A stretch of 55,470 nt of DNA, taken from Prorocentrum cordatum. Lineage: Eukaryota. Positions 4,164 to 55,470 of the stretch are shown piece after piece. The position numbers were made by a program, and so were the translations under genes. The stretch spans positions 62,001-117,470 of the forward strand of contig CAUYUJ010000156.1 of NCBI GenBank assembly GCA_963575745.1, in the 5' to 3' direction. The notes beneath the pieces are model-generated. The model searched no databases and was not told where the DNA came from. It was given only the letters and a program-made list of their open reading frames with translations. The first letter of the stretch is position 1, and each line of letters begins with the position of its first letter.

Positions 4164-4771
4164 GCCATGAGCATGATATGGCACCCATACCTGCAGCGCC
4201 TTTCTCGCCTGGCCCTTCCTGTTCCTCCTCCTCGTCCTACTTCTCCTCCTCCTCCTCCTCCTCCTCCTCCTCCTCCTCCTCCTCCTCCTCCTCCCCATAT
4301 CAGGAACAAGCATGTCATGAACATCAAACATCTCGGAGGTTCGCGCGGATTCCCCGGATCGGCGCTGGTCCCCCTTCCTTGTCGTGCGCGGCGCACCAGG
4401 GGCGGCGCTGGAGGCGCCGCCAGGGGGCCTCAGCGCCGATCCGAGGAATTCCGCGCGGACCTCCGAGTTGTTCTCCTTATGTCATTGTTTGTTCCCCTAG
4501 AGGAGGGCGAGGAGGAGGAGGAGGAAGAGGAGGAGGATTGTTTGTTTCCCACATGTTTCGTGGGGTTCTGGTTTTCTTCCCTGCCCTCGCGCACCCGCGT
4601 CTCCTCCTCCTCACCCTCCTCCCCTCCTCCCTCCCCCTCTTCCTCTCCTCACCCGCGCTCAACACATGCACGGCAAGTACGTGAGACACACGTCTACATA
4701 CAGCCGCACGCATGCACACACTCGCACACAACACACACACACACACACCATACAACGCTAGTGCGCGTCGG

Positions 4772-7090
4772 ATACGTGGCAGGCGCAGCAGTTTCTCGAC
4801 ACCACAGGGGGTGTGCAGGGGGTGGTCTCTCAGTGCGGTCTCTATCCGTCGCACGCTCGCAAAGCACGGCAGGCGTAGCAGCTCCTCGGCACCAGGGGGG
4901 TGCGCAGGGGGTGCGGTCTCTATCCGTCGCACGCTCGCAAAGCGCGGCAGGCGTGGCATTTCCTCGACACCAGGGGGGTGCGCACGGGGTGCGGTCTCTA
5001 TCCGTCGCACGCCCGCAAAGCGCGGCAGGCGTGGCATTTCCTCGACACCAGGGGGGTGCGCAGGGGGCGGTCTCTATCCGTCGCACGCTCGCAAAAGCGC
5101 GGCAGGCGTGGCATTTCCTCGACACAAAGGGGGTGCGGCAGGGGGTGCGGTCTCCTATCCGTCGCACGCCCGCAAAGCGCGGCAGGCGTGGCATTTCCTC
5201 GACACCAGAGGGGGTGCGCAGTTGGTGCGGTCTCTATCCGTCGCACGCTCCGCAAAGCGCGGCAGGCGTGGCATTTCCTCGACACCAGGGGGGTGCGCAG
5301 GGGGTGCGGTCTCTATCCGTCGCACGCTCGCAAAGCGCGGCAGGCGTGGCATTTCCTTGACACCAGAGGGGGTGCGCAGGGGGTGCGGTCTCTATCCGTC
5401 GCACGCCCGCAAAGCGCGGCAGGCGTGACATTTCCTCGACACCAGGGGGGTGCGCAGGGGTGCGGTCTCCATCCGTCGCACGCTCGCAAAGCGCGGCAGG
5501 CGTGGCATTTCCTCGACACCAGGGGGGTGCGCAGGGGGTGCGGTCTCTATCCGTCGCACGCTCGCAAAGCGCGGCAGGCGTGGCATTTCCTCGACACCAG
5601 GGGGGTGCGCAGGGGGTGCGGTGTCCATCCGTCGCACGCTCGCAAAGCGCGGCAGGCGTGGCAGTTCCTCGATACAAAGGGGGTGCGCACGGGGTGCGGT
5701 CTCTATCCGTCGCACGCCCGCAAAGCGCGGCAAGCGTGGCATTTCCTCGACACCAGGGGGGTGCGCAGGGGGTGCGGTCTCTATCCGTCGCACGCTCGCA
5801 AAGCGCGGCAGGCGTGGCATTTCCTCGACACCGGGGGGGGTGCGCAGGGGGTGCGGTCTCTATCGGGCGCACGCTCGCAAAGCGCGGCAAGCGTGGCATT
5901 TCTGCGGCACCAGGAGGGTGCGCAGGGGATGCGGTCTCCATCCGTCGCACGCTCGCAATGCGCGGCAGGCGTGGTAGTTCATCGACACGAGAGGGGGGGC
6001 GCAATTGGTGCGGTCTGTATCCGTCGCACGCTCGCAAAGCGCGGCAGGCGTGGCATTTCCTCCACACCAGGGGCGGACGCAGGGGGTGCGGTCTCTATCC
6101 GTCGCACGCTCGCAAAGCGCGGCAGGCGTGGTAGTGTACCGACACGAGAGGGGGTGCGCTGGGGGTGCGGTCTCTATCCGTCGCACGTTTGCAAATCGCG
6201 GCAAGCGTGGCATTTCCGGGGGCCAGAACCAAGGGAGGGGCGAGGGGTGGTTTTGGGGGGGAGGTCTTATCCGTTCGCACGCCCGCAAGCGCGGCCAGGC
6301 GTGACATTTTCCTCTGACACCAGGACGGGTGCGCACAGGGGTTGCGGTCTCTAGCCGTCGCACGCTCGCATAAGCGCCGGCAGGCGTGGCATTTATCACG
6401 GGTCCGTTCAAGGGGGTGCGCAGTTGGTGCGGTCTGTATCCGGCGCGCGCTCGCAAAACGCGGCAGGCGTGGCATTTCCTCGACACCAGGAGGGTGCGCA
6501 GGGGATGCGGTCTCCATCCGTCGCACGCTCGCAAAGCGCGGCAGGCGTGGTAGTTCATCGAAACGAGAGGGGGTGCGCAGTTGGTGCGGTCTCTATCCGT
6601 CGCACGCTCGCAAAGCGCGGCAGGCGTGGCATTTCCTCCACGCCAGGGGGGGCGCAGTGGGTGCGGTCTCTGTCCGTCGCACGCTCGCAAAGCGCGGCAG
6701 GCGTGGTAGTTCATCGACACGAGAGGGGGTGCGCAGTTGGTGCGGTCTGTATCCGTCGCACGCTCGCACAGCGCGGCAGGCGTGGCATTTCCTCCACACC
6801 AGGGGGGGTGCGCAGGGGGTGCGGTCTCTATCCGTCGCACGGTCGCAAAGCGCGGCAGGCGTAGCATTTCCTCCACACCAGGGGGGGTGCGCAGGGGGTG
6901 CGGTCTCTATCCGTCGCACGCTCGCAAAGCGCGGCAAGCGTAGCATTTCCTCGACACCAGGGGGGGTGCGCAGGGGGTGCGGTCTCTATCCGTCGCACGC
7001 TCGCAAAGCGCGGCAGGAGTAGCATTTCCTCGACACTAGGGGGGGGGTGCGCAGGGGTCGCACGCTCGCAAAGCGCGGCAGGCGTAGCAG
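4772..7090. repeat. Tandem satellite, 78-bp unit, about 30 copies
   Basis: Unit GCGGTCTCTATCCGTCGCACGCTCGCAAAGCGCGGCAGGCGTGGCATTTCCTCGACACCAGGGGGGTGCGCAGGGGGT; starts at 4913 and 4991 give period 78. No unique spacers. Confidence 0.97.
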
Positions 7091-7101
7091 TTCCGCGGCA
7101 G

Positions 7102-8184
7102 GCGGCAGACTTCAAGTATGTGGGGTTCCTCGGTAGCGTATTGGGTGGACTGAGTTCGGACCGAGGACAGCAGGCGCGGCAGGACGGCATTACTGATTAT
7201 TTGCATGTCCGTTAGCCTGCCGCTGCGTTTTTTTAGCTTTTCCTCTTTACTGTTTTTTATCCTTTTTTTTGATCTCTTTTCTTCGGTCCCTTTTCTCACG
7301 AAGCTTCGTGCCGAGGGGGGCAGAGGAAGCGAGGATTTGAGGACGAGACGGGAGGAGGAGGAGAGGAGGAGGGAGGAGGAGGAGGAGGAGGAGGAGGAGA
7401 GAGGAGGAGGAGAAGAGGAGGAGGAGGAGGAGGAGGAGGGTGTAGGAGGAGGAGGAGGAGGAGGAGGGGGCAGAGGAGGAAGAGGATTAGGGAAGTGACA
7501 GGGGGCAGAGGAGTAGCTTGTTCGCGCGCACGGTCCCTTCATTTCATGATTGGATCTTGGGACTTTGATCGTGCGCCAGGAAGAGAGGGACCTCGAGGGG
7601 AGGAGGAGGAGGAGGAGGAGGAGGAGGAGGAGGAGGAGGAGGATGAGGAGGAGGAGGACAAGAAGGAGGAGGAGGAGGAGGAGGAGGAGGAGGAGGAGGA
7701 GGAGGAGGAGGAGGAGGAGGAGGAGCGGGAGGAGGAGCGGGGCGGAGGAGGTGGCGCAGGATGCAGGAGGAACGGTGCGGGGGAGAGGAGTCTGGAGGCT
7801 CCAGGAGGTTACCCCAGATTCCAGGAGGTTTGCGGCGGTTCTGGCAGGTTTTCGGAGGTTGTCGCGTAGATTTACAACTGTTTTCGGAGGGTTTCGAAGT
7901 TCCAGGTTCCAGGATGCTTTCGGAGGTTGTCTGAGGCCTCGGGAGGTCTTCGCCAAACTTTGGAAGTCTTCTCAGATGTCTAGCTGTTTCTGGATTTTTC
8001 TAGCGTTCGGGTCGTTTTTTCCCCGAACGTTCTGTAAGACTTTCGGGGATGCCGGGGAGTATTCGCAAGCTTTCAAACGTTGCTTCGAGCTCGGGAGGTT
8101 CTGCGTTTTCCAACGTCAGCGCTCTGTTGTCGACAGCTCCGGGAGGTTTTCGATTTCTCCCTGGAGGTGTTCAGAGGACAATGA
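7102..8184 (+). CDS. Putative last three micro-exons of an unidentified host gene (7102-7173, 7760-7807, 8146-8184)
   Basis: Three unique islands, each preceded by AG|G, with donors AG|GC and AG|GT. They join in phase 0 to AADFKYVGFLGSVLGGLSSDRGQQ-DAGGTVRGRGVWRLQE-VFDFSLEVFRGQ*. Inference only; no homolog recognised. Confidence 0.3.
7340..7750. repeat. (GGA)n microsatellite tracts (same class at about 4240-4295, 14990-15490, 18600-18900, 25490-25598, 36900-37110, 40390-42220, 44545-44893, 52250-52370)
   Basis: Direct reading; source of the poly-E/R/G/P/S/L ORFs. Confidence 0.95.
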
Positions 8185-24834: not shown

Positions 24835-25024
24835 ATGTGTGTATGTGTGTATGCGTGTATGTGTGTATGTATGTATGTATGTATGTATGTATGTATGTAT
24901 GTATGTATGTATGTATGTATGTATGCATATGTATACATATATATATATATAGATAAAAGGGGGAGGGTGTGTGAGAGAGAGAGAGAGAGAGAGAGCGTGA
25001 CCGAGAGAGGGAGAGCGAGAAAGG

Positions 25025-25055
<31 letters not shown>

Positions 25056-25056
25056 C

Positions 25057-25090
<34 letters not shown>

Positions 25091-25596
25091 CTTCACAGCG
25101 GGAGCCAGAGCAGGCAACCGAGCAGGCGCGCCGCAGCCCCGCGCCGCCTTCCAAGATCCTCGCGTGCGGGGCGGCGGCCCGCGCGGCAATCAAATGCACG
25201 CCGCCCTGCGGGGAGCTCTGCAGACGCGTGGCGGCCCGTCCGCTCCGCCGCGGGCCCCGTCCGCGCCGCGGCGCCCCGCCGCGAGGCCCTCGCCCCCTCG
25301 GCGGGGCTGGCGCGCGCGCGCGCGGCGCGCGGCGGGCCGCGGGCGGGTCGGCGGCGCAGCCCCGCGGGTGGAGCCCCCGGGTGGCGGCAGCGCCCCTCTG
25401 AGGCCGCCGCAGCCCTGCGCGTGCGAGCGCCCGCCAGTGCGGGGGGGGGGGGGGGGCGAGCAGAGGGGGTCCGAGGACCCCGCCGCCTCCACCTCCTCCT
25501 CCTCCTCCTCTCCTCCTCCTCCTCCTCCTCCTCCTCCTCCTCCTCCGCGCCTCCGCCTCCCCCTCCTCCTCCTCCTCCTCCTCCTCCTCCTCCTCC

Positions 25597-25618
25597 TCCG
25601 TAGCCATTTTGGCTCAAG
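25597..25618 (+). other. Exact dinoflagellate spliced-leader sequence (DinoSL) in genomic DNA; retroposed leader, not an SL RNA gene
   Basis: TCCGTAGCCATTTTGGCTCAAG matches DCCGTAGCCATTTTGGCTCAAG at 22/22. It is followed by CC rather than the GT donor expected in an SL RNA gene. Confidence 0.95.
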
Positions 25619-25633
25619 CCGTATCGGCTCAGG
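25619..25633 (+). other. Second, decayed SL relic in tandem
   Basis: CCGTATCGGCTCAGG keeps both ends of CCGTAGCCATTTTGGCTCAAG (CCGTA ... GGCTCA.G) with an internal deletion. Confidence 0.6.
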
Positions 25634-25760
25634 GTGGTCTGCGCGACCCGCTCGGCCTGGCTCCCCCCGATCCGCTCCGCGGGTCTTCCTGCTCCCTCTC
25701 CCTCGGGCCGGGCGCGCCTCGGCCGTCGGCCGCCCGCCCTCGGTCCCTCTCTCTCCTGCC

Positions 25761-26697
25761 ATGGCTGAGGTCGCTCGTGTGGCAGCATCCGTGAATGGCC
25801 AGCCTGCACTGCCTGGACCGTCTCCCCCTCTTGCCACCGCGGGGGCAGTGGGGATGGGAGCGCCGCCGCCCGCGCCCGTGCCCGAGGTGCAGTCGGAGGT
25901 GGCCGTGCAGCTCAACGCCTTGACGATGTTAGTGAAAGATGGTTTTACCTCGCACAAAGCAGAGTTTGAGTTGTTTCGCCAGCAGATGACAGTGATGGGG
26001 ACCAACTTCGATCGAATGCAGGAGGAGTTCGCGGAGATGAATCGTCGCTCGGAGGCTCGCTGGGCAGAGATAAAGAAATCCCAGGATGCAGCGATCCACC
26101 AGGTCTCGGTTGACACAGATGCGAAGTTGGCGGCAGTAGTGGCAAATATCGACGTTCAGATGCAAGAGTTACAGCAGAAGCTCTCAGCAGGTTCGTCGAC
26201 TCGTGCCGATTCGGAGTTCGAGCTCGTAGGAGGTGATGGGGAAGGAGGGCGTCGGACGAGGTCGAGGACGTCGGGCCCCGACCAAGCCAGTGCTACTCGT
26301 CTCATTGTGCTAGGTTTCGAGAAGCCCCTGCTGGAAGCGTCTCTCAAGGAAGCGGTGGCCCCAATTGTCGCTGCGTGTAGTCCAGCTGTGGGAGCTCCGC
26401 GCGCGTCGTGATTTGCCCCCCGCCAGCCGTAAGTTGTTCTACTACCTGGGACAGACTCGTGCGATCATCGGGAAGGTCTTGGGGGAGAAAGGGTTCCAGG
26501 TGGGCAGCAACGGTCTCGGCGGTCAGATATACGGTCTCATTACGACTACCCACCCAGTGATTCTTGCGAAGGTCACGGTCCTTGAGTGCGGTCGCCCCGA
26601 ACTCGTTCTGATCCATGAGGCCCTCGGAACGTTCGGAGTAGGTGAGCACGCTGCATGCATTGCCACCCTTTTTGATCAGATTCGGCCCTTTGTGTGA
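25761..26697 (+). pseudogene. LINE ORF1 (coiled coil plus RRM-like start), frameshifted or internally deleted at about 26390
   Basis: ATG at 25761 (GCCATGG; MAEVARV...). Heptad-rich 'LNALTMLVKDGF...MQELQQKL' is followed by 'RLIVLGF'. The frame then switches to 26365-26697 ('LRARRDLPP...FDQIRPFV*'). It lies directly upstream of the APE domain. Confidence 0.7.
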
Positions 26698-26949
26698 GGG
26701 CCCCAGTTGTCCTGGAGCACCCCGCCTCGGGATTCCTAGTGCGCTGCCTGGTCTTTTTTGCCGGGCCCCTGGTGGTTTTGGCCCTCCCTGGGATGGTGGG
26801 CCTGTCGGGGGAAACCATCGGACCCGTGTGCCGACCAGCCAGGACAGTGCTCAGCCAGCCAACCAGTGTTTTAATCTGAATTCAGGAGGACCGTTTACCC
26901 CTGGTGACCCGTCCTCTGGAGCGAACGGGGTGTTTGCTCCTTCTTCTGC

Positions 26950-28020
26950 GCTTACCTTGTGCTCTTGGAATACACGTGCTCTCTTCTCATCGTACTCTAC
27001 TTCGTCTCCACTGGCAGCTCGGCGTTATAAGCAGATGCATGGTCTTGTTGGCAGGTTTGACGCTGTGTGTTTACAGGAGACTCATGGCACGGTGTCTGAT
27101 GTGGAGATGTTACAGCGTGGTGAACGTTGTCGTAGTGCAATTGTTCACCATTCGATGATCGATCCGAGAGCTGGGGGCGGTGTGGTCACTGTCATATCGA
27201 GGAAGCTGGCTTCGCAGTTCGAATCGATCACCCCGTTTCCGTTGATTGCTGGCCGTGCTCTCGCCTCGCACCTGAAGGGACGTTGTGGGGACCTAGTGAT
27301 TGTCAATGTGCACATGCCGAATACTTCTGATCCAGTTGCGATGTATCGCAGGTACCTGTGTGTGATTCAGGCTTTCCTTCCATTGGCTGCGCACACCATG
27401 TGCTTGATTGCTGGGGATTGGAACTTTATGGAGGTGGGGGAGGGACGGTTTCGGACTGACGGCACGTGGTTAGCAGGGGATAGGGAACACACTGATGCCG
27501 TTCAGTCTATCTGTGGGTCTTGGGCTGAGCTTTCCCAACCAGATCCGACAGGGCGTGACGTGTTCCAGGGAGAAGTCCGTGGGGTTGCCCGTCTGGACCG
27601 CATCTACACCTCTCTCTCGGCCCCTGTCTTGAATGATTTGGCGGTGACGGTAAATGCCCTGGGGCATGCCGTGAAGACCTTCGCCTCGTCTGACCACGTC
27701 CCTGTTGTGGCCACTGTCGCTCTGGGAATGCCATCAGCATTACCCACCCATATTCCTAAGTGGATTTCCCGACATGGAGCTCACCATGAGTTATGTACCA
27801 GCACTACTATGGAAATCGACCAGGATTTGACCCCCCGGGAGAAACTGGCTCGGGTGAAGGAGATGCTCTGGCAGATGGCCCCTCTGTCCAAGGCACGGCT
27901 TCGGTCGAAGCCCCCGAAAGAGAATTGTGAGACGCTCCACTTTGCTATGATGGCCTTCCGTGGGTGGCGCATGGGCAGGTTCGACCAGTGTGTGCGTGCG
28001 ATACGCGCGCATCCTCGGTT
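26950..28020 (+). pseudogene. LINE ORF2 N-terminal part: apurinic-like (APE/EEP) endonuclease
   Basis: All EEP motifs in order: LCSWNTRAL, VCLQETHG, GGGV, GRAL, IVNVHMPN, IAGDWNF, RLDRIY, SDHVPV. Confidence 0.93.
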
Positions 28021-30552
28021 TTTCAGTACTTTGATCCAGACCGCGAGAGATGCCTGGATATAGTCGGCTTGGGTGCATTGGTGCAGTCTCTGAAGGATGC
28101 TTGGTATGAGTCGGAGGAACGGGCGATGGACGGGTGGGAGGATGACGAGAAGTCTAAGGCTAAGGCCATGGCACGCTTGCAACACCTTCGTCGTGCTTGG
28201 TCAAAGATGCGACGGCGATGCGGGCTCTCTGGGGTCCTGGACAGTTCTGGGCAGGTGTGCCCTTCTCCGGCGTCCCCTGCTGAGGCCCTTCGGGACCATT
28301 GGCAGGAGGTTTTTGCCGCCAAGGAACCTGATCGGACCCTTTGGCCTGAAATCCTCGCTCATGCCCAGCTGATCCAGTTGGACCCATTACATTGGAAGTT
28401 GGAAGTTGATGGTTTTATTGAGCGGGCCCGATTAAAGCATCACTCTGCCCCTGGGGAGGATGGCATTCCATATGGATGCTGGAAAGCTGAGGGGGCCGCT
28501 GATGTTTTATTTGCTGTTTATGATGAGATGTACCAAGCGTCGGGGGGTACTGTTTCGGCGTGCATGCGTCGAGGAAGGATGTGGTTCCTGCCCAACGACT
28601 TCAAAGACGACGAAAACCCCGCTGTCCTTGTTCGGTCGCCTGGTAAGACTCGCCCTCTCACGCTTGCGAATACCGATGCGAAGCTCCTGAGTGACGCCTT
28701 CTCCATTGGCCTCCAGCGGGCTGCACCGACAGTGATCGATCCGATCCAGCGGGGGTGGGGGGTCCCGCGTCGTGGGCCCCTTGGCAACGTGGTTGAGATT
28801 GAATGGTGGGGTCTTCGTCAGGCGCTTGCTGGCGGGGATCGCTCGGGCATTCTTTTAACGGGCTTTAAGGCTGCGTTCCCCTCTCTGATCGTCTCCTGGA
28901 TCTTGGCGGTCTTGGAGGCCATGGGTGTTCCTGGTGAAGTTTGTGGTTTCTATCGCGAGTTGTACCGTGACAATGTGGCTGTAATCCACTTCCCTGGGAT
29001 TACGTTTTTTTTTTTTTCGGTGGAGCGTGGGGTGCGGCAAAGTGATCCTGCTCCGATGCTCCTCTTCGCTCATGCGTTAGACCCAGTATTGCGTTGGATG
29101 AGGGCCAAGCTCACTGACCATGTCCCTCGGATTAGAGCATGCGCTGATGATCTCTCCTTCTGCCTTCCCAACATCCTGACTGACCTCCAGCCGACGCTCT
29201 CGCTCCTTCGTAAGTTGGAACAAGTTGTGCGACTTGGGCTGAACATTCCCAAATGTAAGGTACTGGTGATTGGCTCGCTTGATCCTGATAGATTAGTTGC
29301 CCACCTTCGATCCAAGGGGAGTGAGTACTACCGCATTGGGTTTGTTCGCGTGGTTCTATACTTGGGATTCTGGCTTGGGCCTGGGGCTCTGGACAAAGTA
29401 TGGAGCAACACCATCCCCAAGTTCTGGATGACGGTTCGGAGGCTTCGTGGGTTTGGGCTTGGGCTTCCACAGACCATTCGCCCTTTCCACTCGCACTGCA
29501 TGTCGATTCTGGCGTGCCAGTTACAGCTCTGTCCAGTGACCAAGGCTCTTCGGAAAGCGTATAATGAGGCCTTACAGGTGATTACTGCTGGTCCCCGCCA
29601 TGCCTTCTCGAGGGAGATGCTGACGGGCATGCGAGCGTTGGGGGCCTCTTTACAATGCTTGGCTATCGATTGTTTTTCTAAAGCTATCAAGTTTCGGGTG
29701 ATGATGTCTTGCTCCAGCATTGATGCTATCCAGTGTGAGATGGAGTCATTGACGGTTTCCCTGGATTGCGATAACTTCATTCCCGCTCGACTGTTATGGC
29801 CCTGGTGGAAGTCTTCCTGGATCAGGACTACGGTGACTGAAGTAGGCAACTTCACGGTCCCGTCTCTGGAACCCATCCCCAAGAAACCCCTTCAGAAGAA
29901 AGCCATGCGCAAGCTCGGAGGGCTCCGTGACCCCACTGTTCCCCTTCGCACCATGGTTCAGAGGGTGTCCAGGTGGGTGGGTCCCGACCGTTTTACAGTA
30001 GCTGACTTTCAGGTGTTTGCCCAGAGGATGCGTAAAGTTGAGAAGGACAGCACGATGCACCTCGTCACGGGGGTCCTTAGAGTGCTCTGCCGTGGGGTCT
30101 GTACCTCCAGTCGGCTGCATACCACGGTGGAGGGATGTGCGTTTGGGTGTCCTCTGGAAGCGGCTGACGACGACCTGAGGCATTATCGCGTGTGCCCCAA
30201 GTTGAAGGCAGGGTTGATTGACATATTCCCCCGTGGAGGACTCTTGAGGTCTTGGACCGCGGCTCAAACGGGTGAGGATTGGCTCCTCACTCTTTGTTGT
30301 TTGGGGCCACAGTGGGGGCGGTCGCGTGACCTAGTGGGGCGTGCCCTTATTGATTGCTTTCTGGCCGCGCATAATGCTCGCAGGACTGGCTCGGTCCAGC
30401 CGGGTGAGTTTCTTATCAAAGCAAGGCTTCGTCAGTTGTCTCGTCGGCACCCCAAGCTTAATGAGGCGCTACGGGCGCTGCGTCTGGCTGCTGCTGCTGC
30501 CGCCCCTCCCCATGCTCCTCCTGCTCCTCCTGCTGCGCCCCTCCTCTCCTGA
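28020..30552 (+). pseudogene. LINE ORF2 C-terminal part: reverse transcriptase and CCHC knuckle (joined to APE by a frameshift at the T-run near 28019-28023)
   Basis: Motifs SAPGEDGIPY, RPLTLANTDAKLL, QRGW, LLTGFKAAFPSL (catalytic D replaced by G), GVRQSDPAPMLLF, ACADDL, GLNIPKC, YLGFWLG, and CAFGC..DDLRHYRVC. Confidence 0.93.
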
Positions 30553-31687
30553 GTTGCCGTGTCCCCCTTTTTGGTCCCCCCTTTTCCCTGTGGCCCCCCT
30601 AGGTATTGGTCCTTGCATGATGCTGTCAGAGTTTGATGTGACCCTGGTGGGTCTCTCTGGTTGGCTGGCTGGTTTCCCGAGGTTGTTTCCAGATGTTGTG
30701 CTTTCTCAGCGCTCTGTTACGTTTCTTGGTTAATTCAGGGCCCCGTGTTGTCGCCAGGGTTGTGGGCGCTGCTCAGTGCTCATTGTGACCCTCTCCGCCT
30801 GCATGTGAAGATGGTGAGGTGCAGCTAGAGAGAGTGCCTCTCTCGCCGCGCCGCCGCCCCCCTGCCTTTAGAGGGTGCCTCTCTTGCCGCGCCGCCGCCC
30901 CCCCGCCTCTCTCTGCCGCCCGCCCCGCGGCCGCCCCGCCTCTCTTGCCTGCCCCGCCTCTCTTGCTGTCCCTGAGCTACAGGTTCTCGGACGGGCGGAA
31001 CGGTCTGGTTCGCTCGAGCGTCGATGGAGCGTCGCTCCTGTAGGGTAGGCAGGCCTTCCCGCGACGCCAAGCCGTGGCGCCTCCAGACACCCGTTGCGTC
31101 TGGCGCGGAGGAGGCCACCCCCCTCTGCCGCGCCCCGCCGTCGCCCTCAGGTTCCCGACGAAGTTCGAGGCACCCCCGCAGCCGCTCCGCGCGAGAGAGC
31201 GGCCCCCTCTCGCCCTCAGGTCCCCGACGAAGTTCGAGGCACTTTGGAGGCAAGCTGTCTTGTTTCCCTTGTTCGGTGTGTTGGAGTCTCGTGTTTGGGG
31301 CGCGCCCCTTTTGTCTGCTTCTGCTTGCTGCGCTGTGGGTTGGGCCCTCGGTCAGCCGAGGAGTGAGTGCGGCATGGGAAGGATGCTCGGGTGTGCGACC
31401 CCCTTTTGGACGGCGTGCCGTGGGGGGGCGCGCGCCCGCCAGGGATCCAGTACACTCGGAGCAGAGTGCCCGCCGCCGCTTCTCTTTGCCCTGCCCCTGC
31501 CGCTGCTCCCCCCCCGTCCTTTGCATGTTAGATAGCACGGTGCCCAGTGCTCGAGGACATTCGGTGCGCGCGCTTGCGGTGCAAAAAAATACCCTGTGAC
31601 GTACCCAGCTCATTTGTATCAGTGGAAACGATGAGTTGGCCGAAACTTGCATGGACAATCGACTTGATGTGTAAGCTACTTGGGAGG

Positions 31688-33010
31688 CGTCACTGTGCTG
31701 GGCCCCGCAAGCAGGCCTCGAAAGTGGCGACAGTTTCACAGATCGCACCCCCCCCAGGGATGGCGAGGTCTAATTTGAATCTGCGTGTGGCGTCACTGTG
31801 CTGCCCCCCCCCAGCAGGCCGCGAAAGTGGCGACAGTTTCACAGATCGCAGCCCCCAGGGATGGCGAGGTCTAACTTGAATCCGCCGTGGGTACCCACTG
31901 TGCTGGGCCCCCCGGCAGGCCTCGAAAGTGGCGACAGTTTCGCAGGTCGCAGCCCCCCAGGGATGGCGAGGTCCCATTTGAGTCCGCCGCGGGTGCAGAC
32001 TGTGCTGGGCCCCCCAGCAGGCCTCGAATGTGGCGACAGTTTCACAGATCGCAGCCCCCCAGGGATGGCGAGGCCCCATTTGAATCCGCACTGGGTACCC
32101 ACTGTGCTGGGCCCCCCAGCAGCCCTCGAAAGTGGCGAGAGTTTCGCAGGTCGCAGCCCCCCACGGATGGCGAGGTCCAATTTGAGTCCGCCGTGGGTGC
32201 AGACTGTGCTGGGATGGCGAGGTCTCATTTGAGTCCGCCGTGGGTACCCACTGTGCTGGGCCCCCCAGCAGCCTTCGAATGTGGCGACAGTTTCGCAGAT
32301 CGCCGCCCCCCAAAGATGGCGAGGCCCCATTTTAGTCCGCCGCGGGTGCACACTGCGCTGGCCCCCCCAACAGGCCTCGAAAGTGGCGACAGTTTCACAG
32401 ACCGCAGCCCCCCAGGGATGGCGAGGTTCCATTTGAGTCCGCCGCGGGTGCAGACTGTGATGGGCCCCACAGCAGCCCTCGAAAGTGGCGACAGTTTCAC
32501 AGATCGTAGCCCCCCCAGCGCTGGCGAGGTATAATCTGAGTCCCCGTAGGACGTCACTCCGCTGCCCCCCCAGCAGCCTTCGAAAGTGGCGACAGTTTCA
32601 CAGATCGCAGCCCCCCAGGGATGGCGAGGTCTAATCTGAATCCCCGTAGGGCGTCACTCCGCTGGGCCCCCCACGCAGCCTTCGAAAGTGGCGACAGTTT
32701 CACAGATCGCAGCCCCCCAGGGATGGCGAGGTCTAATCTGAATCCCCGTAGGGCGTCACTCCGCTGGGCCCCCCAGCAGCCCTCGAAAGTGGCGACAGTT
32801 TCACAGATCGCAGCCCCCCAGGAATGGCGAGGTCTAATCTGAATCCCCGTAGGGCGTCACTCCGCTGGGCCCCCCAGCAGCCCTCGAAAGTGGCGACAGT
32901 TTCACAGATCGCAGCCCCCCCAGGGATGGCGAGGTCTAATATGAGTCCCCGTAAAACGCCACTCCGCTAGGCACCACAGCAGCCCTCGAAAGTGGCGACA
33001 GTTTCACAGA
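31688..33010 (+). repeat. Tandem satellite, ~101-bp unit, about 13 copies
   Basis: Core CTCGAAAGTGGCGACAGTTTCACAGATCGCAGCCCCCCAGGGATGGCGAGGTCTAAT; the CGAAAG motif recurs at 32581, 32683, 32784 and 32885. Confidence 0.95.
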
Positions 33011-53500: not shown

Positions 53501-54349
53501 GGAGAGAAAGCAGGTTGCCAAACAATTTCCAGATGCCAAAAACATGTGTGAGGCCCCAAAGAACCCTCAGGAGGCCCCCAAGACGCCCCCAAGAGGCCCC
53601 CTAAGAGGCTCTAAGAGGCCCCCTAAGAGGCCTCTTGGAGGCCCTAAGAGGCCCCCAAGAGGCCCCCACGGGCCTGCGGAATGAGCGAAGCGATTCAATA
53701 ATTTCCAGATGTCTAAAACATGTGTTAAATTTGTGTTTAAGTGTGTAAAGCACATGTTTAAAACAGGTTTAGGCCATGTTCCGACATGTGAAACACGTTT
53801 TAAGTTCATTGATGAGACTGTTAGGGTGTCAATTGTCGTGGCATCCACATGAGTACGGTTGGGCCGAGGTATCAGATCGAGGTAGGTTCGCCTGGGCCTC
53901 CCAGATGAGGTCCGAGCAGATGGTGTCGGAGGATCGCGCCGCATCGCCGATGCATCGCCGATGCGGCTCGATGTGGGGCCCGATCTGTTTCATGCCGACG
54001 TCGCCGAAGCATCGCCGACGTCGACGATGCAACGTCGGTGCATCCCCGATGCATCGCCGATGCGTCGCCGATGTATTGGCGATGCTCCTCCGACCCATAT
54101 CTACGCCGACCCTATCTAGGAGCCCTCTAGTTCGGGGAGGGTGCCCTAAGGCTCTTCGTATCTGTAGATTTCTGGTACCCCCTCGGCGATCTCGTGGCTT
54201 GGGTGTTTCCCAACACTCCTGCTTTGGGCTTTCGTTTTGAATAGAGCACTGCGGTCGCCAACCTTCTTTTCCTTCTCCCCCTCTCCTCTCCTGTGCGCCT
54301 GGTGGCTTGCATGTGGGGCCTGCGAAATGTGAAGCTGGCATGCCTTGGG

Positions 54350-54990
54350 AGCTGGGATCTGCGAAACTGTCACCACTTTCGAGGGCTTCCGGGGGGACCA
54401 GCATAGTAGGTACCCGCCGCGGAGTCAGCTTAGACCTCGCCATCCCTGGGGAGCTGCGATCTGCGAAACTGTCGCCACTTTCGAGGGCTGCTGGGGTGGC
54501 CAGCATAGTGGGTACCCGCCGCGGATTCAGATTTGGCCTCGCCATCCCTCGGGGGCTGCGATCTGCGAAACTGCCGCCACTTTCGAGGGCTGCTGGGGGT
54601 CCAGCGGAGTCAGGCACCACCAAGACTCAGATTAGACCTCGCCATCCCTGGGGGGCTGCGATCTGAGAAATTGTCGCCACGTTCGAGGTCTGCTGAGGGG
54701 TCCAGCGGAGTGCGGCACCACCCAGACTGGGGGGCTGCGATCTGCGAAACTGTTACCACTTTCGAGGGCTGCTGGGGTTCCAACGGAATGAAGCACCACC
54801 CAGACTCAGATTGGACCTCGCCATCCGTTGGGGGCTGCGATCTGCGAAATAGTCGCCACTTTCGAGGGCTGCTGGGGGGTTCAGCGGAGTGAGGCACCAC
54901 CCAGACTCAGATTAGACCTCGCCATCCCTGGGGGGCTGCGATCTGCGAAAGTGTCGCCACTTTCGAGATCTGCAGGGGGATCCAGCGGGG
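54350..54990 (-). repeat. Second array (about 7 units) of the ~101-bp satellite, inverted relative to 31688-33010
   Basis: GATCTGCGAAACTGTCGCCACTTTCGAGGGCTGCTGGGG and AGACCTCGCCATCCCTGGGG are the reverse complement of the 31.7-33 kb core. Confidence 0.93.
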
Positions 54991-55470
54991 TGCCGTCGCG
55001 GACCGCCCGCAGACCTGGCGGCGCGCCTTCGAGCGTTTGTTTAGCTCCCGCAGTGAAGAGTGCGGGAAGGAAGCAGGGAAGCTGGCGGGTGAGCTAGGCT
55101 TCGCTTCGCTGATTTAAGGAGCTTTGATCAGCTTTAATCATTTAGTCGAGCGCCGCGGCGACATGGCGCAGGCAGCGCTGAATCTCTAGCGCACTACCGA
55201 CAAACGGCAACATTCTTCGGTCTCCTCACGCCACTTTCGTCGTCGTCCTCTGCCCCCTGCCACCTTTCCTCTGCTGCTGCCGCGCTGACGGGTCGCCCCC
55301 CCCCCCCCCCCCCCCCCCCACGGGCCCCCCCCCCGGTTTTTTTTTACCGCGTCCTTATTTCTGGTCCCCACGCTTCCTTCCTGCCCGCATGTCTTCTTCA
55401 AGCTTGGGCGCTCGCTCCTCGTCCTCATGCTGGTGTCCTGTGAGCCGTGCCACGTGACCGCGTCCCATCT

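Follow-up and report, generated by a model that had tools for sequence, protein, structure and literature searches.

Why does a retrotransposon of a dinoflagellate begin with the very sequence that its host joins to messages in trans? The question is raised by a long interspersed nuclear element (LINE) of Prorocentrum cordatum, whose first recognizable bases are those of the dinoflagellate spliced leader (SL), DinoSL. The element starts at position 25597 of a stretch of 55,470 nucleotides (nt), which we call the window (assembly GCA_963575745.1, contig CAUYUJ010000156.1, positions 62,001 to 117,470 of the forward strand); coordinates are those of the window unless another contig is named. We conclude, with a probability that we put at about 0.8, that full-length copies of this LINE family begin with the leader because a LINE message that had received the leader by trans-splicing was reverse-transcribed and integrated. 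The evidence comes from the 5' end of the window copy, from a diverged relative with the same 5' end, and from an unrelated LINE that likewise starts with the leader.

A complete spliced leader forms the 5' end of the element

An initial annotation of the window had reported a perfect 22-nt leader 164 nt ahead of the ATG of open reading frame 1 (ORF1) and no GT after the leader. The coordinates and a scan of the window agree with that report. We found that positions 25597-25618 (+ strand) match DinoSL at 22 of 22 bases, the first base being T, and that the ORF1 ATG lies at 25761, which is 164 nt downstream of the leader's first base. For the scan we dropped the variable first base; the remaining 21-mer has a single site in the 55,470 bases at up to 3 mismatches, and none of 100 shuffles matched. 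An SL RNA gene would have GT after the leader, and here the next two bases are CC. The element thus has the mark by which relict-leader retrocopies are recognized, a genomic DinoSL at the 5' end of a transcribed unit and outside an SL RNA gene. We also scanned positions 25000-26200 against Rfam and found no ribozyme or other family; the only matches were sub-threshold, microRNA-like ones on a hairpin formed by a G run and CTC repeats.

A diverged relative begins in the same way

The window ORF1, used as a single-protein query, gave no match among metagenome contigs. An alignment of three ORF1 relatives gave none among genome contigs and viral contigs and retrieved a sole locus, L120, a metagenome contig of 1,687 nt from another sample. 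In L120, ORF1 is intact (208-1308) and the contig reaches into ORF2, with the same frame layout as the window. The two copies are well diverged: identity is 48% over 165 amino acids (aa) of ORF1, 67% over 102 aa of its C-terminal part, and 47% over 139 aa of the ORF2 start.

The 5' end of L120 reads, in order, 18 unique bases, (TCC)11, a leader, a 15-nt relic, a decayed 19-nt unit, and the 5' untranslated region (UTR). The leader is two bases short in its A/T run. The relic (L120 69-83) is perfect and has the form that results from a cut at the AG after leader base 7. Such an AG-cut relic right behind a fuller leader is a further mark of relict-leader retrocopies, and the window has it as well, decayed and 14 nt long. 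Leader plus 15-nt relic is exactly the product predicted by the recycling model of dinoflagellate retrogenes (PMC3229502, PMC7245778; here and below, papers are cited for the excerpts that treat these elements). The window relic can alternatively be paired, by eye, with the third, decayed unit of L120, at 10 of 14 positions.

Behind the leader units, the L120 UTR aligns with that of the window from 25633 onward. We counted 69 identical columns among 103 aligned ones (67%), plus 28 gap columns. A block at 25633-25661 is nearly identical in the two copies and may be a cis element. At the UTR identity rate, unchanged inheritance would give a 22/22 leader with a p of ~1.5e-4 and a 15/15 relic with a p of ~2.5e-3. 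The leaders would thus have been added anew after the window and L120 lineages split, or else have been held under strong selection. We favor renewal over inheritance because the UTRs are only 67% identical, the leaders are far better kept, and the number of leader units differs, being two in the window and three in L120.

Both family members with a readable 5' end thus carry the leader at a homologous place. The initial annotation had proposed that the 5' ends of family copies be aligned and had allowed that the leader might occur at this locus only, as an unrelated neighboring insertion. The two copies compared both begin with the leader and have homologous UTRs, and L120 contradicts the idea of an unrelated neighbor. 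The parts of the window copy are listed in Table 1.

Table 1. Features of the window copy and its immediate flanks
Feature	Coordinates	Strand	Remarks
(CTC/TCC)n microsatellite	25480..25596	+	Adjoins the leader without a gap; ~120 nt, in phase with the leader's first TCC; pyrimidine tract before the AG inside the leader; probable target-site remnant
22-nt DinoSL, 5' end of the element	25597..25618	+	Exact match, followed by CC, not GT
14-nt decayed leader relic	25619..25632	+	One unit of an older round; pairs with the perfect 15-nt relic of L120 at 10/13 aligned positions
5' UTR	25633..25760	+	Homologous to the L120 5' UTR
ORF1, first part	25761..26411	+	216 codons and a premature stop; Pro/Ala-rich N terminus, long helix, start of the C-terminal domain
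ORF1, last part	26385..26697	+	Shifted frame; family C terminus, stop at 26695-26697; matches P0001, P0003, P0005, and L120 to the last residue
ORF2, first part	26642..28021	+	+1 frame relative to ORF1, overlaps the ORF1 end; endonuclease domain at ~26960-27697
1-nt deletion splitting ORF2	28021..28022	+	Extra C here in most other copies, joining endonuclease and reverse transcriptase in one frame
ORF2, second part	28022..30552	+	Reverse transcriptase core at ~28585-29268, catalytic CADD at 29140-29151, CCHC-type motif at 30136-30195, stop at 30550-30552
3' UTR and 3' flank	30553..31685	+	No microsatellite; sole A run is A7 at ~31584-31590; boundary between UTR and flank not fixed

An unrelated LINE also starts with the leader

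In bacterial and archaeal metagenome-assembled genomes (MAGs), we located the leader 21-mer at 21 sites (19 loci), evidently on contaminant eukaryotic contigs. At 9 of the 21 sites the leader is followed by GT, resembling SL RNA genes; the other 12 have no GT. One of these 12, L133 (GC content 70%), which is continued by L142 of the same contig, is a LINE. Its order is a long (GA)n, the leader, a 98-nt UTR, a 373-codon frame, one in-frame stop, a 2,536-codon frame, a stop, 31 nt, A6, and (GA)n. The 2,536-codon frame matches Exo_endo_phos with an expect value (E) of 3.8e-9 and RVT_1 with an E of 3.7e-11. We found no BLAST similarity between the L133/L142 LINE and the window proteins, nor any match of the window reverse transcriptase (RT) in five MAGs holding leader-bearing contigs or in viral contigs. 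The unit from leader to A run is enclosed by one and the same microsatellite, and therefore the leader is the true 5' terminus of this LINE and the microsatellite its target.

Among the remaining contaminant contigs, leaders come right after (GT/GC)n in L121, (CAT)n in L124, and (GACA)n in L135, with downstream ORFs of 485, 139, and 316 codons, respectively, that have no Pfam family. These three may be retrogenes with the same kind of microsatellite junction. The ORFs behind the leaders of L121, L130, and L135 showed no likeness to the window ORF1 and no Pfam families. In another MAG contig (L128:7001-7021, - strand), a leader with nothing attached to it has a 19-nt direct repeat on either side, as would a minimal insertion that duplicated its target site.

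Microsatellites adjoin the leader

A (TCC)n tract lies on the 5' side in both family copies, the window and L120, and was seen on the 3' side in neither; in the window, the sequence from the ORF2 stop to 36282 has no (TCC)n. The window is itself rich in simple repeats, and 3.35% of its positions are preceded by a microsatellite of at least 18 nt. It is unlikely that (TCC)n stands ahead of both copies by chance. Because both adjoin (TCC)n against this base rate of 3.35%, the tract likely reflects a target preference of the family. A weaker alternative is that the RT copied the leader's first TCC over and over and so produced the repeat.

At the MAG sites that are not SL RNA genes, 10 of 12 have at least 18 nt upstream of the leader, and a microsatellite adjoins the leader strictly in two of the ten (L124, L133) and by eye in two more (L121, L135). 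The same microsatellite on both sides, together with a short A run, was seen for L133/L142 only, a LINE unrelated to that of the window.

The family is multi-copy, and most copies are truncated at the 5' end

To survey the family, we matched contigs from four DNA-type runs, X1 to X4, to the window at an identity of at least 80%; the contigs are about 200 nt long. X1 gave 974 matched contigs, of which 161 were at least 99% identical, 321 were 95 to 99% identical, 360 were 90 to 95% identical, and 132 were less than 90% identical. The other runs gave 54 (X2), 61 (X3), and 89 (X4). Depth, which here is a sum over contigs and not a copy number, was 14 to 19 in X1 over 25540-25911, mostly 100 to 340 in the body of the element, and 51 to 66 past the ORF2 stop. 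Such a profile is expected of a LINE present in many copies, most of them truncated at the 5' end and some of them young. There was no second copy of the element within the window.

The tail of ORF2 contains a 40-nt GCT/CCT-rich stretch (30486-30525) that is common to a much more abundant repeat. From this stretch arises a depth spike over 30376-30561 that peaks at 2,586 in X1 and at 817 in X4; loose ends flank the stretch on either side and nearly coincide in three runs.

The window copy encodes an APE-type LINE but is decayed

By its domain order, the window element is a LINE of the apurinic/apyrimidinic endonuclease (APE) type. The frame 26642-28060 matches Exo_endo_phos (PF03372) with an E of 2.7e-12. 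Compared with the PDB, the frame 27931-30549 matches the RT of R2Bm (8gh6, E 9.8e-8), human L1 ORF2p (8sxt, E 4.5e-5), and other R2 proteins; its own match to Pfam RVT_1 (E 0.026) is under the cut-off. An exhaustive HMMER search retrieved 3,682 RT relatives at an E of 1e-3 or lower and 144 at 1e-30 or lower. In all 12 of the nearest full-length relatives that we scanned, RVT_1 was above the cut-off. Exo_endo_phos lay N-terminal to it in nine of the 12, an RNase H domain was seen in none, and zf-RVT was present in the two remotest.

In the window, the endonuclease and the RT share one ORF, with the endonuclease N-terminal, once the majority C after 28021 is counted. Other copies have this C at 83.4 of 96.5 depth units in X1, 3.06 of 3.06 in X3, and 4.95 of 4.95 in X4. 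It joins the endonuclease and RT frames, and therefore the family ORF2 is a single frame from which the window copy has lost 1 nt. Within the RT frame the window also has a T13 run (29005-29017), which reads FFFF; other copies differ at 29004-29006.

ORF1 is damaged as well. Its relatives (P0001, P0003, P0005, and the intact ORF1 of L120) run about 150 residues past the window's ORF1 stop, and the window encodes their conserved C terminus in a different frame, at 26314-26694. Because the C terminus sits in the other frame, the window ORF1 must have lost about 143 nt (about 48 codons and a frame change), with the junction at about 26384/26385. The family layout is thus an ORF1 of about 360 aa and one ORF2 of about 1,300 codons with APE, RT, and CCHC motif. 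The window copy is dead, though near-full-length. When the initial annotation described a near-full-length LINE with ORF1, APE, and RT, it was right about the domains, but its "near full-length" has to be qualified by the damage to both ORFs. Its end coordinate of 30800 was arbitrary: the last base of ORF2 is 30552, and we found no mark of where the element ends.

The region of ORF2 upstream of the endonuclease has no ATG in the window (26642-26960) or in L120 (1280-1600). Because this stretch is nevertheless conserved as protein in the two copies (47% over 139 aa), it points to an unconventional initiation of ORF2.

We found no Pfam family in the ORF1 frame 25761-26408 and no longer homologs of the window ORF1. 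A structure model of ORF1 had a mean predicted local distance difference test score of 45.8, with moderate confidence in a long helix (residues 44-148) and poor confidence elsewhere. One further relative, P0002 (EukProt EP00959), is a transcript-derived sequence of 126 aa, 76% identical to the ORF1 N terminus and filed under Pyramimonas sp. CCMP1952. Either the culture or the lane was contaminated, or the filing hints at the host; the origin of P0002 also suggests that some ORF1 relative is transcribed.

Alternative explanations of the leader

The leader could have been captured once by an ancestor and now be a fixed part of the 5' UTR that is transcribed from a promoter and never renewed. It does stand at the same place in both copies, and the conserved UTR block could be an internal promoter. 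We nevertheless consider a one-time capture improbable, since the copies differ in their number of leader units, a 22/22 leader and a 15/15 relic stand beside a UTR that has drifted to 67% identity, and the unrelated L133/L142 LINE has the leader as its first bases too. U6/L1 chimeras are a precedent for another route, in which the RT, during reverse transcription, left the LINE RNA at its 5' end for SL RNA or a leader-bearing mRNA and the LINE RNA was never spliced. LINE RTs do switch templates (PMC11838501), and L128 has an isolated leader between copies of a 19-nt direct repeat. After a jump onto SL RNA, however, intron bases would often be expected behind the leader; what comes next here is CC or an AG-cut relic, and the leader-UTR junction is homologous in two diverged copies. 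Such a switch is therefore quite unlikely to be the source.

Two other accounts would make the leader something foreign to the element. If the LINE had inserted into an SL RNA gene, as SLACS, CZAR, CRE, and NeSL do, the leader would be target DNA, and spliced-leader exons are indeed known LINE targets (PMC4640811). The leader is complete and uninterrupted, though, and has (TCC)n rather than SL gene sequence upstream; the element has no SL intron behind it, its endonuclease is of the APE type, and the SL genes in the MAG contaminants look different, with GT after the leader. We regard this origin as very improbable. Genomic leader relics are common in dinoflagellates (PMC5585692), and a LINE, complete or 5'-truncated, might have come to lie beside the relic of an unrelated retrocopy. 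That L120, from another sample, has the same arrangement and a homologous UTR contradicts such a coincidence, which we find scarcely credible.

Trans-splicing and reintegration of the LINE message, the core of the initial annotation, is supported both by the leader and canonical relic array of L120 and by the L133/L142 unit that runs from leader to A run between (GA)n tracts. Several points weigh on the other side. Trans-splicing is read from genomic DNA, and only two 5' ends of the family are readable. Good preservation of the leader could come from selection on a fixed 5' sequence. The contig survey skipped the repeat at 25540-25608, so leader junctions of other copies in X1 lie outside it. 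In the window copy we detected no target-site duplication, A tail, or downstream (TCC)n that would mark its 3' end. Finally, EukProt lists the ORF1 relative P0002 with the transcriptome of a green alga.

A proposed cycle of leader renewal

We propose that a transcript of the element would receive the 22-nt leader in trans, as other nuclear dinoflagellate messages do, and that ORF2p would copy the capped message to its very first base and integrate it. Since the message would be copied to its first base, full-length copies would start with the leader. The resident leader has an AG at positions 6-7. Upon retranscription, a new leader would join there and leave a 15-nt relic behind, and leader-relic arrays would therefore record successive rounds. 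In the window copy the acceptor would be this AG inside the resident leader, with the joint at 25604. The initial annotation had looked for the joint at 25619 or 25634; both are less likely than the AG in the leader, as L120 shows the predicted 15-nt relic.

Target-primed reverse transcription would insert the copy, probably at a microsatellite; the window's family would use (TCC)n and the unrelated LINE (GA)n. A (TCC)n tract right before the leader AG resembles a strong 3' splice site and, to speculate, may keep insertions competent. Transcription could come from read-through or from the conserved UTR block at 25633-25661. Four parts of the cycle are inferred: that the leader came by trans-splicing, which acceptor was used, where transcription arises, and that this family targets microsatellites.

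LINEs and leader recycling are each known singly, and their combination is an expected consequence of universal trans-splicing, yet it is a useful one. A LINE family with renewed leaders would mean that LINE messages pass through the retrogene cycle and are copied to full length. Since LINE messages would then share that cycle, LINEs become a concrete and testable candidate for the engine of retroposition; a role in producing leader-tagged retrogenes is plausible. As a natural tag, the leader would show where an element truly begins, and the relic array would give a rough count of rounds; from the two, a family's history and its master copies could be read from genome sequence alone. The microsatellite flanks would be a signature by which the junctions of LINE copies can be set against those of retrogenes.

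A bolder version is that dinoflagellate LINEs are leader-dependent and promoter-free, their read-through transcripts being freed and capped by trans-splicing at the leader AG, an acceptor that (TCC)n would sharpen in the window's family, and that the same machinery acts in trans as a retrogene engine at microsatellites. We hold this version only tentatively and would sooner doubt it than accept it. If it were true, the engine of thousands of leader-tagged retrogenes would be identified.

Comparison with known elements

L1-type LINEs combine an ORF1 with an ORF2 that encodes APE and RT and carries a CCHC-type motif near its C terminus; truncation at the 5' end is frequent among them, and they are proposed to act in trans on host mRNAs, which gives processed pseudogenes. 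The window family resembles them in ORF order, in its APE-RT-CCHC ORF2, in frequent 5' truncation, in an ORF2 without a conventional start, and in the proposed action in trans on host mRNAs. It differs in the low identity of its RT to human L1 ORF2p (the match at E 4.5e-5) and in having no long A tail, and the likeness is one of layout and structure match, not of an RT tree.

SLACS-type elements have a restriction-like endonuclease and a fixed site at which they interrupt SL RNA genes. Like them, the window element is a LINE physically joined to spliced-leader sequence; unlike them, it has an APE, an intact 5' leader, (TCC)n upstream, and no SL intron downstream. The initial annotation had drawn this contrast with SLACS/CZAR/CRE of trypanosomatids and NeSL of nematodes, LINEs that insert into spliced-leader exons (PMC4640811), and the intact leader, upstream microsatellite, and APE-type endonuclease bear it out.

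Any LINE in a trans-splicing host must define its own 5' end. In trypanosome L1Tc/ingi elements, the 5' end is set by the Pr77 internal promoter and a ribozyme like that of hepatitis delta virus, and the transcripts are unspliced (PMC1874656, PMC3185411). L1Tc thus avoids trans-splicing, whereas the window element appears to use it and has no ribozyme family at 25000-26200. Microsatellite-specific LINEs are also known, such as Togen, which is specific for (TG)n (PMC4640811). In the LINEs described here, too, a microsatellite flanks the insertion; L133/L142 has the same one on each side, and the window copy and L120 have one on the 5' side. The families named in that paper, however, have a restriction-like endonuclease, and targeting by the window family is seen in two 5' flanks only.

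The closest parallel is with dinoflagellate relict-leader retrogenes, which arise by "recycling of processed cDNAs" (Slamovits and Keeling 2008, as described in PMC3229502; Song et al. 2017, PMC5585692). They, too, have a genomic leader before the coding sequence, older leaders that were cut at the AG after base 7 and lie in a stack behind a newer one, and a cycle of transcription, trans-splicing, reverse transcription, and integration. What sets the window family apart is that its message encodes the retrotransposition machinery itself and that it is multi-copy. Song et al. 2017 (PMC5585692) report that retrogenes are enriched in "RNA-dependent DNA replication", and Song et al. 2018 (PMC6050394) treat the mediating element as unknown and favor Ty1/copia. 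In the excerpts concerned, the retroelement that mediates leader-tagged retrogenes is called unknown (PMC5585692, PMC6050394, PMC12014239, PMC7245778, PMC8045281, PMC11453091, PMC3229502, PMC3942190), and LINEs of Symbiodiniaceae are described as nonactive remnants (PMC10235124). A literature search yielded no description of a leader-headed LINE family in the excerpts retrieved.

Leaders in giant-virus bins and other features of the window

The exact 21-nt leader also occurs in IMG/VR contigs, at 134 distinct sites in 119 loci (L001-L119), mostly in AT-rich giant-virus (GVMAG) bins. At most of these giant-virus sites, one of a small set of recurrent AT-rich motifs stands before the leader and unique sequence after it, in many cases with an ATG a short way downstream; the bins seem to encode the host's leader ahead of many genes. 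We found no relative of the window proteins or of the L133 proteins at any of the 119 loci. Among the papers listed by a literature search on giant viruses and the dinoflagellate spliced leader, none obviously describes leader-bearing giant-virus genes.

The window holds 20 further ORFs, none with a Pfam family, and no recognizable gene near the element. A satellite array with a 102-nt unit follows at 31686-33010, and a second, inverted array lies 21 kb away at 54325-54997. We considered the satellite as part of the 3' UTR and dropped the idea, since the inverted copy lacks the sequence that adjoins the array at 31686. At the other end of the window, positions 4740-7123 are a long array of 78- to 79-nt tandem repeats with a conserved core (repeat families D9, D12, and D17).

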